From Escherichia coli O157:H7 (GTDB lineage Bacteria; Pseudomonadota; Gammaproteobacteria; Enterobacterales; Enterobacteriaceae), in assembly GCF_013167455.1 (NCBI RefSeq), contig NZ_CP038328.1: a stretch of 64,000 nucleotides of DNA. One strand, 5' to 3'. Position 1 is the stretch's first letter, and the number at the start of each line of letters is the position of its first letter. Below, in pieces: positions 56,249 to 57,142 of the stretch. The notes under the pieces are model-generated. The model was not told the DNA's origin. It saw only the letters and a program-made list of their open reading frames with translations, and ran no database searches. The position numbers were made by a program, and so were the translations under genes.

Positions 56249-57142
56249 TTACCAGCGCCCGGAAGCGCCACCGCCACCAGATGAACCGCCACCACCGCTA
56301 AAATTGTCATTGTCGAATGAAGAGGATGACGATGATGAATAGTGGGAGGAAGAATTGCTTCTTGTATGGCGTGATGGCTGGTTGGCATCACGCATCAAAT
56401 CCCGAACTTTTTTGCCGAAGGGGGTAAAAGCGATGGCGACAGCCAGGAACGGTGTGGCGAAGCAGAGTCATGTTGCGAGTACTCCCCAGCTTCCGCTGAA
56501 GCCTGCTATAGGTAAAACAAAGGCCAGTACAATAGCTGCGAAGCAAATTACTCCCAGCGTTTTGATATATCCTCTGGCAGAAATAAACGTCAGTACTATC
56601 GCCCAGACTAACAATGCCCACCAACCGCTAAAGGGCAAAGGGTGATCGGTCGGTGTTATCGTTGCTAAATTATTCCCCGTCAGACGACTTTCAATATCGC
56701 TGATTCCCTTTTGCAAACCACCAGCCAGGTCGCCTTTTTTAAATGCAGGAATAATACTGTTGCGAATAATTTTCCCGGACTGCGCATCCGTAATAATACC
56801 TTCCAGTCCGTAACCGATTTCAATACGCACGGTATGATCCTGCCAGGCGACTAACAGTAGAACGCCATCATCGCGGTCTTTATCACCCGGTTTCCAGCTA
56901 TCGAATACCCGCGTCGCGTACTGCTCGATGGTTTCATCGCCTGTTGTTTCAACCACTAACACGACCAACTGTGCGTAGTTTTTTTGCGTCAGGGCTTTAA
57001 TCTGGTTGGTCAGGGTGTTTACTTCGCTGTTTGTTAATGTGCCGGTTAAGTCATTCACATACTTGGGTGATTCAGGTACTGGAATTTGTGTGGCAAACAC
57101 AGATGAACAGAAGAAAGCCATAAGGAAGATAAAATTTCGCAT
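56249..57142 (-). pseudogene. TPM-domain membrane protein, third paralog, interrupted by in-frame TGA at 56468-56470
   Basis: ORF 57142..56471 (MRNFIFLMAFF.. signal peptide) continues in the same frame after the TGA for 72 codons to ..FSGGGGSSGGGGASGRW stop at 56249-56251; TGA lies inside a predicted TM segment. Confidence 0.7.

Follow-up and report, generated by a model that had tools for sequence, protein, structure and literature searches.

A lineage-fixed premature stop codon in a TPM-domain gene of Escherichia coli O157:H7

The third of three tandem TPM-domain genes in Escherichia coli O157:H7, hereafter TPM3, very probably is a young pseudogene that originated by a TTA to TGA change now fixed in this lineage. 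The gene was analysed in a stretch of 64,000 nucleotides of contig NZ_CP038328.1, hereafter the window, and all positions are given in window coordinates unless stated otherwise. A single T to G transversion turned leucine codon 225 of TPM3 into TGA, very probably after O157 had diverged from O55:H7 but before the sampled O157:H7 genomes last shared an ancestor. The TGA is present in all 299 O157-type complete genomes detected. Translation is predicted to stop a few residues into the third transmembrane helix (TM3), so that the product would retain its signal peptide along with the periplasmic TPM domain and two helices. TPM3 would be inactivated or severely impaired, and the downstream paralogs would perhaps be expressed less through lost coupling or polarity. 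The truncation would be a later step in the decay of the cluster, whose lemA gene appears to have lost its ATG earlier, in the shared ancestor of O55:H7 and O157:H7. It is an ordinary and already recorded case of lineage-specific gene decay, one of many single-base inactivations separating O157:H7 from its O55:H7 progenitor, and has little weight for biology at large.

The lemA-TPM cluster between queE and eno

The gene region of the window is 100% identical to many E. coli O157:H7 chromosomes. The cluster lemA-TPM3-TPM2-TPM1 is located on the minus strand and is flanked by queE (57931-58602) and eno (52817-54115), both on the plus strand. The first gene, lemA (57156-57776, minus strand; ECs3634/Z4090), matches the LemA family (PF04011, E=8e-46), and its stop codon is 13 nt ahead of the TPM3 start. 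It is followed by TPM3 (TPM paralog 3; 56249-57142, minus strand; ECs3635/Z4091), by the intact TPM paralog 2 of 382 aa (TPM2; 55086-56234, minus strand; ECs3637/Z4092), and by the intact TPM paralog 1 (TPM1; 54175-55092, minus strand; ECs3638/Z4093), which overlaps the end of paralog 2 and was named ygcG by Zhou et al. 2010 (PMC2806823).

All three tandem genes match the Pfam family TPM_phosphatase (PF04536; E-values 2e-40, 2e-21 and 3e-38), so that the label of third TPM paralog given to the gene in the initial annotation is correct. The match of TPM3 (E=2e-40) scores 138 bits at a gathering cutoff of 22.1 and covers aa 29-151. The plant founder of the TPM domain is TLP18.3. TPM proteins with PDB structures (7TBR; BA41, 5ANP; 2KW7; BA42, 4OA3/2LT2) match TPM3 in the TPM domain only, with E-values from 5e-22 to 8e-4. 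Matches in NCBIfam are weak and below cutoff, relating the TPM genes to the photosystem II repair protein Psb32 and LemA to the magnetosome protein MamQ, and hence do not provide a functional name for the TPM genes or LemA. E. coli K-12 has another cassette, made up of yqcG and ygcG, and its YgcG protein shares 43% identity with paralogs 1 and 3. At such a low identity, TPM3 is not the ortholog of K-12 ygcG. Literature searches on LemA together with the TPM domain, on ygcG, and on the operon or membrane function of LemA/TPM yielded nothing relevant.

The TPM paralogs of the window are 37-46% identical overall, with an invariant C-terminal motif, F-x-GGGGSSGGGG-x-S-x-RW, at the ends of all three. 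A signal peptide, a TPM domain, membrane helices and a Gly-rich tail constitute the architecture common to ancestral TPM3 and both neighbouring paralogs. The ancestral allele encodes C-terminal membrane helices and then a Gly/Ser-rich tail, as do both paralogs, whereas the O157:H7 TPM3 product ends before this succession is complete. Compared with TPM or 'YgcG family' proteins (PF04536), O157:H7 TPM3 is without the C-terminal quarter and, judged by these matches, is a truncated member of the TPM-domain/YgcG family. The C-termini with the pattern F-x-GGGGSSGGGG-(A/S)-S-x-RW are encoded on the minus strand at 54178-54240, 55089-55150 and 56252-56310, and the pattern is also found in orthologs from Klebsiella and E. 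albertii. This Gly-rich motif has weak, below-threshold Pfam matches to YxzE-like Gly-rich peptides.

Position of the premature stop codon

The TGA of TPM3 corresponds to 'tca' on the plus strand at 56468-56470. Translation of the minus strand from 57172 to 56236 gives a single frame that reads ...LPIAGFSGSWGVLAT, the premature stop, LCFATPFLAVAIAFTPFGKKVRD...FSGGGGSSGGGGASGRW and the native stop. Numbered from the RefSeq start MRNF (57142), the premature stop is codon 225 of 297, and the same frame continues for 72 codons past the TGA, up to the conserved Gly/Ser tail, as the initial annotation had claimed. The mutated base is at 56469 of the plus strand, with C in the window and A in relatives, where the codon is the ancestral TTA (Leu).

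The truncated coding part of the gene (56471-57142, minus strand; ECs3635/Z4091; WP_001243487.1, 224 aa) encodes a signal-peptide-like N-terminus, the TPM domain (aa 29-151), the helices TM1 and TM2, and the first few residues of TM3. The orphaned 3' part (56249-56467, minus strand) consists of 72 codons and the native TAA (56249-56251) and encodes what remains of TM3 and, after it, a basic linker rich in Ser and the invariant FSGGGGSSGGGGASGRW tail. Since the 72 post-stop codons are conserved in orthologs and in both paralogs, the frame, judged by this conservation, is not a chance open frame. The orphaned part is undecayed and its frame is still open; this is uninformative because the lineage is too young.

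Hydrophobic segments of TPM3, calculated by the Kyte-Doolittle scale in 19-residue windows, are located at about residues 4-22 (signal-peptide-like), 169-193, 191-223 and 217-243. The third membrane segment, 217-243, contains the premature stop and peaks at 221-239, so the stop falls a few residues into the third membrane helix. The claim that the in-frame TGA lies inside a transmembrane segment of this paralog was thus borne out by re-translation and by the hydrophobicity profile. The AlphaFold2 model of an intact ortholog, built with a 16-sequence alignment, places the helices at 174-190, 193-212 and 218-238 with low confidence; the model is poor, with a mean pLDDT of 58.5 and about 50 in the membrane part, and gives weak support for the helix boundaries.

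Ancestral state of codon 225

The nearest intact relatives of the gene are those of the O55:H7 strains CB9615 and 2013C-4465. In the O55:H7-type strain 2013C-4465, codon 225 is TTA (Leu) and the CDS is intact (894 nt); over the 937-bp gene query, megablast gives 100% identity between this strain and O55:H7 CB9615. The allele of FDAARGOS_1291 (98.6% identical) also has TTA at codon 225, and Leu is likewise encoded by two E. coli alleles at a greater distance (91% and 79% DNA identity), in the context ...VLATLLCFATPF..., with the frame open to GRW. Because TTA or another Leu codon is present in all orthologs examined, comparison identifies the change as TTA to TGA, a T to G transversion at codon position 2 (A to C on the plus strand at 56469).

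Across the 3.8-kb cluster, the window differs from 2013C-4465 at two sites, both in TPM3: the nonsense base and a synonymous site at 56504, which Zhou et al. 2010 (PMC2806823) assigned to the CB9615 side. A recent nonsense mutation, with TGG to TGA as the example, had been proposed from the window alone. The nonsense nature of the change and its recent age agree with the two-base distance to 2013C-4465; the example codon does not hold, as the ancestral codon is TTA.

Full-length relatives of 292-306 aa were found by protein search in E. albertii, other Escherichia and Klebsiella. A 16-sequence alignment covering E. coli, E. albertii, other Escherichia and Klebsiella has Leu225 in no fewer than 90% of its members, and each of the 16 orthologs runs on through TM3 and reaches the C-terminal ...GGGGSSGGGGASGRW. 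Tail variants in this alignment are limited to one shortened copy and single substitutions. Alignment with orthologs had been suggested as a means to find the sense codon at this position; it gives Leu (TTA in close relatives), and none of the orthologs examined terminates at codon 225.

These comparisons bear on the possibility that codon 225 is a natural terminus followed by a second small gene, or that the UGA encodes selenocysteine. The former finds some support in genome annotation, namely in the separate ECs3636 of the original Sakai annotation and in a 51-aa downstream protein present in some RefSeq records. However, the orthologs examined read Leu and run in frame to the tail, and the 51-aa ORF does not share the frame of the tail; either version has a negligible probability. 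Both strands of 56150-56750 were scanned against Rfam at E<=10; neither a SECIS nor another family of relevance matched, the only hits being noise (eukaryotic snoRNA and lncRNA). Selenocysteine or another programmed recoding of the UGA was rejected given the lack of a SECIS in this region and the presence of Leu, rather than UGA or Cys, in orthologs.

Distribution among complete genomes

When 5426 complete E. coli genomes were searched with a 57-mer that has the TGA at its centre, 299 contained an exact match. Of the 23 such matches that were listed, all those with a serotype label are O157:H7 or O157. The carriers include Sakai, PV15-279 and LSU61, the last being an early-branching presumed intermediate of the stepwise model (PMC7175801), and the isolates span human, cattle, deer, beef and soil sources. 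The number of genomes at least 99% identical over the gene is 312. The other 13 of them, which top the list for the O55:H7-type allele, are of the TTA type: CB9615, RM12579, DEC5A, DEC5B, DEC5D, DEC5E, TB182A, USDA5905, 2013C-4465 and four unlabelled genomes, with nine labelled O55:H7. The two of the 13 whose annotation was fetched, 2013C-4465 and Combat11I9, have the intact 297-aa product WP_001243489.1; all O157:H7 records fetched with PGAP annotation have the truncated form of 224 aa, WP_001243487.1. In the complete-genome set, C versus A at 56469 of the plus strand is therefore a clean binary marker, with 299 TGA genomes on one side and 13 TTA genomes of the O55:H7 type on the other.

A base-call error had been offered as the alternative to a mutation. 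Apart from the prior plausibility of single-base errors, nothing speaks for a sequencing or base-call error in the assembly. The same TGA 57-mer occurs in 299 independently assembled genomes, the independent O157:H7 assemblies of Sakai, PV15-279 and LSU61 show the stop and no sense codon, and the base was recorded in 2010 as a difference of Sakai and EDL933 from CB9615 (PMC2806823). We therefore reject this explanation as practically impossible.

The window does not have the synonymous TPM3 change at gene position 279 (56864) that is carried by Sakai. Zhou et al. 2010 (PMC2806823) assigned this change to the shared lineage of Sakai and EDL933; its absence indicates that the window comes from an O157:H7 sublineage other than that of Sakai. 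Compared with PV15-279, the window has one different base in TPM2 (55793).

Earlier records and annotation of the gene

The genome of O55:H7 CB9615 was compared with those of Sakai and EDL933 by Zhou et al. 2010 (PMC2806823). In Table S10 of that study, G2583_3428 corresponds to ECs3635/Z4091, and Sakai has ECs3636 as an additional ORF. For G2583_3428, three differences are entered in Table S2, 'O157 3626293 s', 'CB9615 3464730 s' and 'O157 3626688 ns'. When an offset of +127 is applied to match the current Sakai record, coordinate 3626688 falls on the middle base of the TGA. This offset was checked at two sites: 3626293 maps to gene position 279, the site of the synonymous difference between Sakai and the window, and 'O157 3642927 ns gudX' maps exactly to the TAG stop in gudX (40230-40232). 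The TGA SNP is thus already catalogued as an O157-branch change (PMC2806823), where it is filed only as 'ns' (non-synonymous) and the truncation is not discussed. The ancestral codon, the location in a membrane helix, the population count and the link to the loss of the lemA start were worked out here in addition.

The TPM3 change resembles the O157:H7 nonsense pseudogenes described relative to O55:H7 (PMC2806823), as it is likewise a single O157-branch base in a gene that is intact in CB9615. The same study also described a truncated efa-1/lifA. The gudX gene of the window (40011-41351, plus strand) has an in-frame TAG at codon 74 (...MVLG-stop-EVARL...). It is a pseudogene in the Sakai RefSeq record, and the O157 'ns' entry of Table S2 maps to the first base of its TAG codon, which is a second O157-branch nonsense mutation within the window.

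The truncation has also left traces in genome annotation. An ORF of 51 codons (56236-56391, minus strand), inside the orphaned tail and in another frame, is annotated as the 'hypothetical protein' WP_001453068.1 in some O157:H7 RefSeq records (for instance at 4282-4437 of locus L001). The ECs3636 of the original Sakai annotation is placed at the position of this ORF in Table S10 of Zhou et al. (PMC2806823). The ORF most likely is a spurious call made possible by the truncation. The orthologs in UPEC-455U/190220 (3531-4202 of locus L005) and 504211 (3531-4202 of locus L006) have PGAP pseudogene flags, 'incomplete; missing C-terminus', and are annotated to end exactly at codon 224. Both orthologs are actually intact, with 302 and 301 aa, respectively, through GRW and the stop. 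The flags look like an artefact propagated from the O157:H7 template WP_001243487.1. As a warning for annotation, intact orthologs elsewhere are mis-flagged as pseudogenes, and the dead tail has acquired a spurious gene call of 51 aa.

Consequences for the product and the downstream genes

Missing from the truncated product are the greater part of TM3, the basic linker (GKKVRDLMRD...) and the GGGGSSGGGGASGRW tail motif. With most of the conserved TM3 and the invariant C-terminal motif gone, the function of TPM3 is likely lost or severely impaired, as expected of a young pseudogene. The gene has an in-frame stop in comparison with intact orthologs of 293-306 aa, the outgroup codon TTA is one base away, and the stop is reproducible in assemblies. 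With three helices after a TPM domain that would be periplasmic, the ancestral tail is predicted to be cytoplasmic, a topology suggested by the positive-inside rule.

It is unlikely that the 224-aa protein continues to function, whether as a hypomorph or in an altered role, and that the loss of the tail was neutral or selected. Both the TPM domain (aa 29-151) and the two hydrophobic segments encoded ahead of the stop are preserved, there are two further paralogs whose tail is complete, and the truncated allele is found in all 299 O157-type genomes detected. The gene is also still transcribed: searches of the literature by locus tag returned only one transcriptome mention, in which ECs_3635 is among the up-regulated genes (PMC11301168). 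On the other hand, the invariance of the lost tail motif across paralogs and genera, together with the conservation of Leu225 and TM3, argues that the C-terminal part matters. Since an odd number of helices is gone, the C-terminus would moreover come to lie across the membrane from its ancestral side. A neutral or hitch-hiking mutation would also be uniformly present in a clone this young, and the missing lemA start of this lineage points to relaxed selection acting on the cluster. We therefore prefer to regard TPM3 as a pseudogene.

The context of the premature stop is ACA-UGA-CUC. Poole, Brown and Tate are said to have found in 1995 that UGA-C is the leakiest termination context in E. coli. 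Some full-length TPM3, probably with the substitution L225W, may still be made. It is far less probable that readthrough of the leaky UGA-C by near-cognate tRNA-Trp gives enough L225W protein for effective function, even with the reportedly weakest E. coli terminator context and an intact downstream frame. Spontaneous readthrough typically does not exceed a few per cent, the Rfam scan found neither a stimulatory RNA structure nor a family nearby, and there is nothing programmed about a codon that was an ordinary Leu in the ancestor.

The premature stop may also affect the genes downstream. The TPM2 ATG is 14 nt past the native TPM3 stop, but 233 untranslated nt (56235-56467) separate it from the premature stop. 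The stretch after the premature stop is C-rich and G-poor, with a C fraction of 0.36 and a G fraction of 0.10 in one 78-nt window. We speculate that these 233 nt could plausibly reduce the expression of TPM2 and TPM1 via lost translational coupling or Rho-dependent polarity.

Loss of the lemA start codon and decay of the cluster

The start codon of lemA is changed from ATG to ACG at 57756-57758 (minus strand), both in the window and in O55:H7-type strains. A 57-mer with this ACG has exact matches in 311 complete genomes, including O55:H7 USDA5905. Other E. coli lemA genes read ...AAAAGGGATTTAAAC ATG CTC... and encode the lipoprotein-like N-terminus MLRIFIVIIFIFNLSGC. The gene of the window resembles LemA-family genes (PF04011) found beside TPM-domain genes in its LemA match and its neighbourhood, and the O55:H7 and O157:H7 copies differ by ACG in place of ATG. 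The gene is a pseudogene in the Sakai RefSeq record, and PGAP uses an upstream ATT start instead. Because the ACG is common to O55:H7 and O157:H7, the comparison of alleles places the impairment of lemA before the O55/O157 split, and the TPM3 nonsense mutation later, on the O157 branch. Losses in this order are consistent with stepwise decay of, or relaxed selection on, the cluster.

A more elaborate scenario would make the TGA the second step, after the loss of the lemA start, by which a LemA-TPM envelope module was taken apart or remodelled in a set order during the transition from O55:H7 to O157:H7. In this scenario, the change would be selected rather than neutral, for example by removal of a cytoplasmic signalling tail that leaves a periplasmic TPM domain or by lowered expression of the downstream paralogs through polarity, and UGA-C readthrough would leave a trickle of full-length protein. 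We consider such a course of events improbable in comparison with plain decay of TPM3. The intact TPM3 of O55:H7 and the truncated one of O157:H7, together with the loss of the lemA start, constitute a natural allele pair for the LemA-TPM module and for the GGGGSSGGGGASGRW tail.

Variability of the queE-eno region

The queE-eno interval (54116-57930) is polymorphic in E. coli, and a gene of the TPM3 type is found in only 1453 of 5426 complete genomes. At this place, strain 504211 combines lemA and a single TPM gene with an unrelated ORF of 363 nt (4472-4834 of locus L006). K-12 MG1655 has the 46-aa envelope-stress protein YqcG and YgcG (4058-5084 of locus L008); the hydrophobic core of YqcG (KIIFIFSVLVF) is faintly similar to the LemA signal peptide (RIFIVIIFIF). 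An anti-phage defence system was considered for this variable locus next to a CRISPR array and was rejected, as LemA and the three TPM proteins have no match in PADLOC-DB at E<=0.01.

Tandem Repeats Finder found no CRISPR array at 58600-59700. A direct search with the repeat consensus identified two E. coli type I-E CRISPR repeats, with one and three mismatches to the consensus, on the minus strand at 58942-59031, between queE and ygcE. These repeats are a residual CRISPR array. Other strains (loci L002 and L006) have CRISPR arrays of 456-1005 bp between queE and ygcE.
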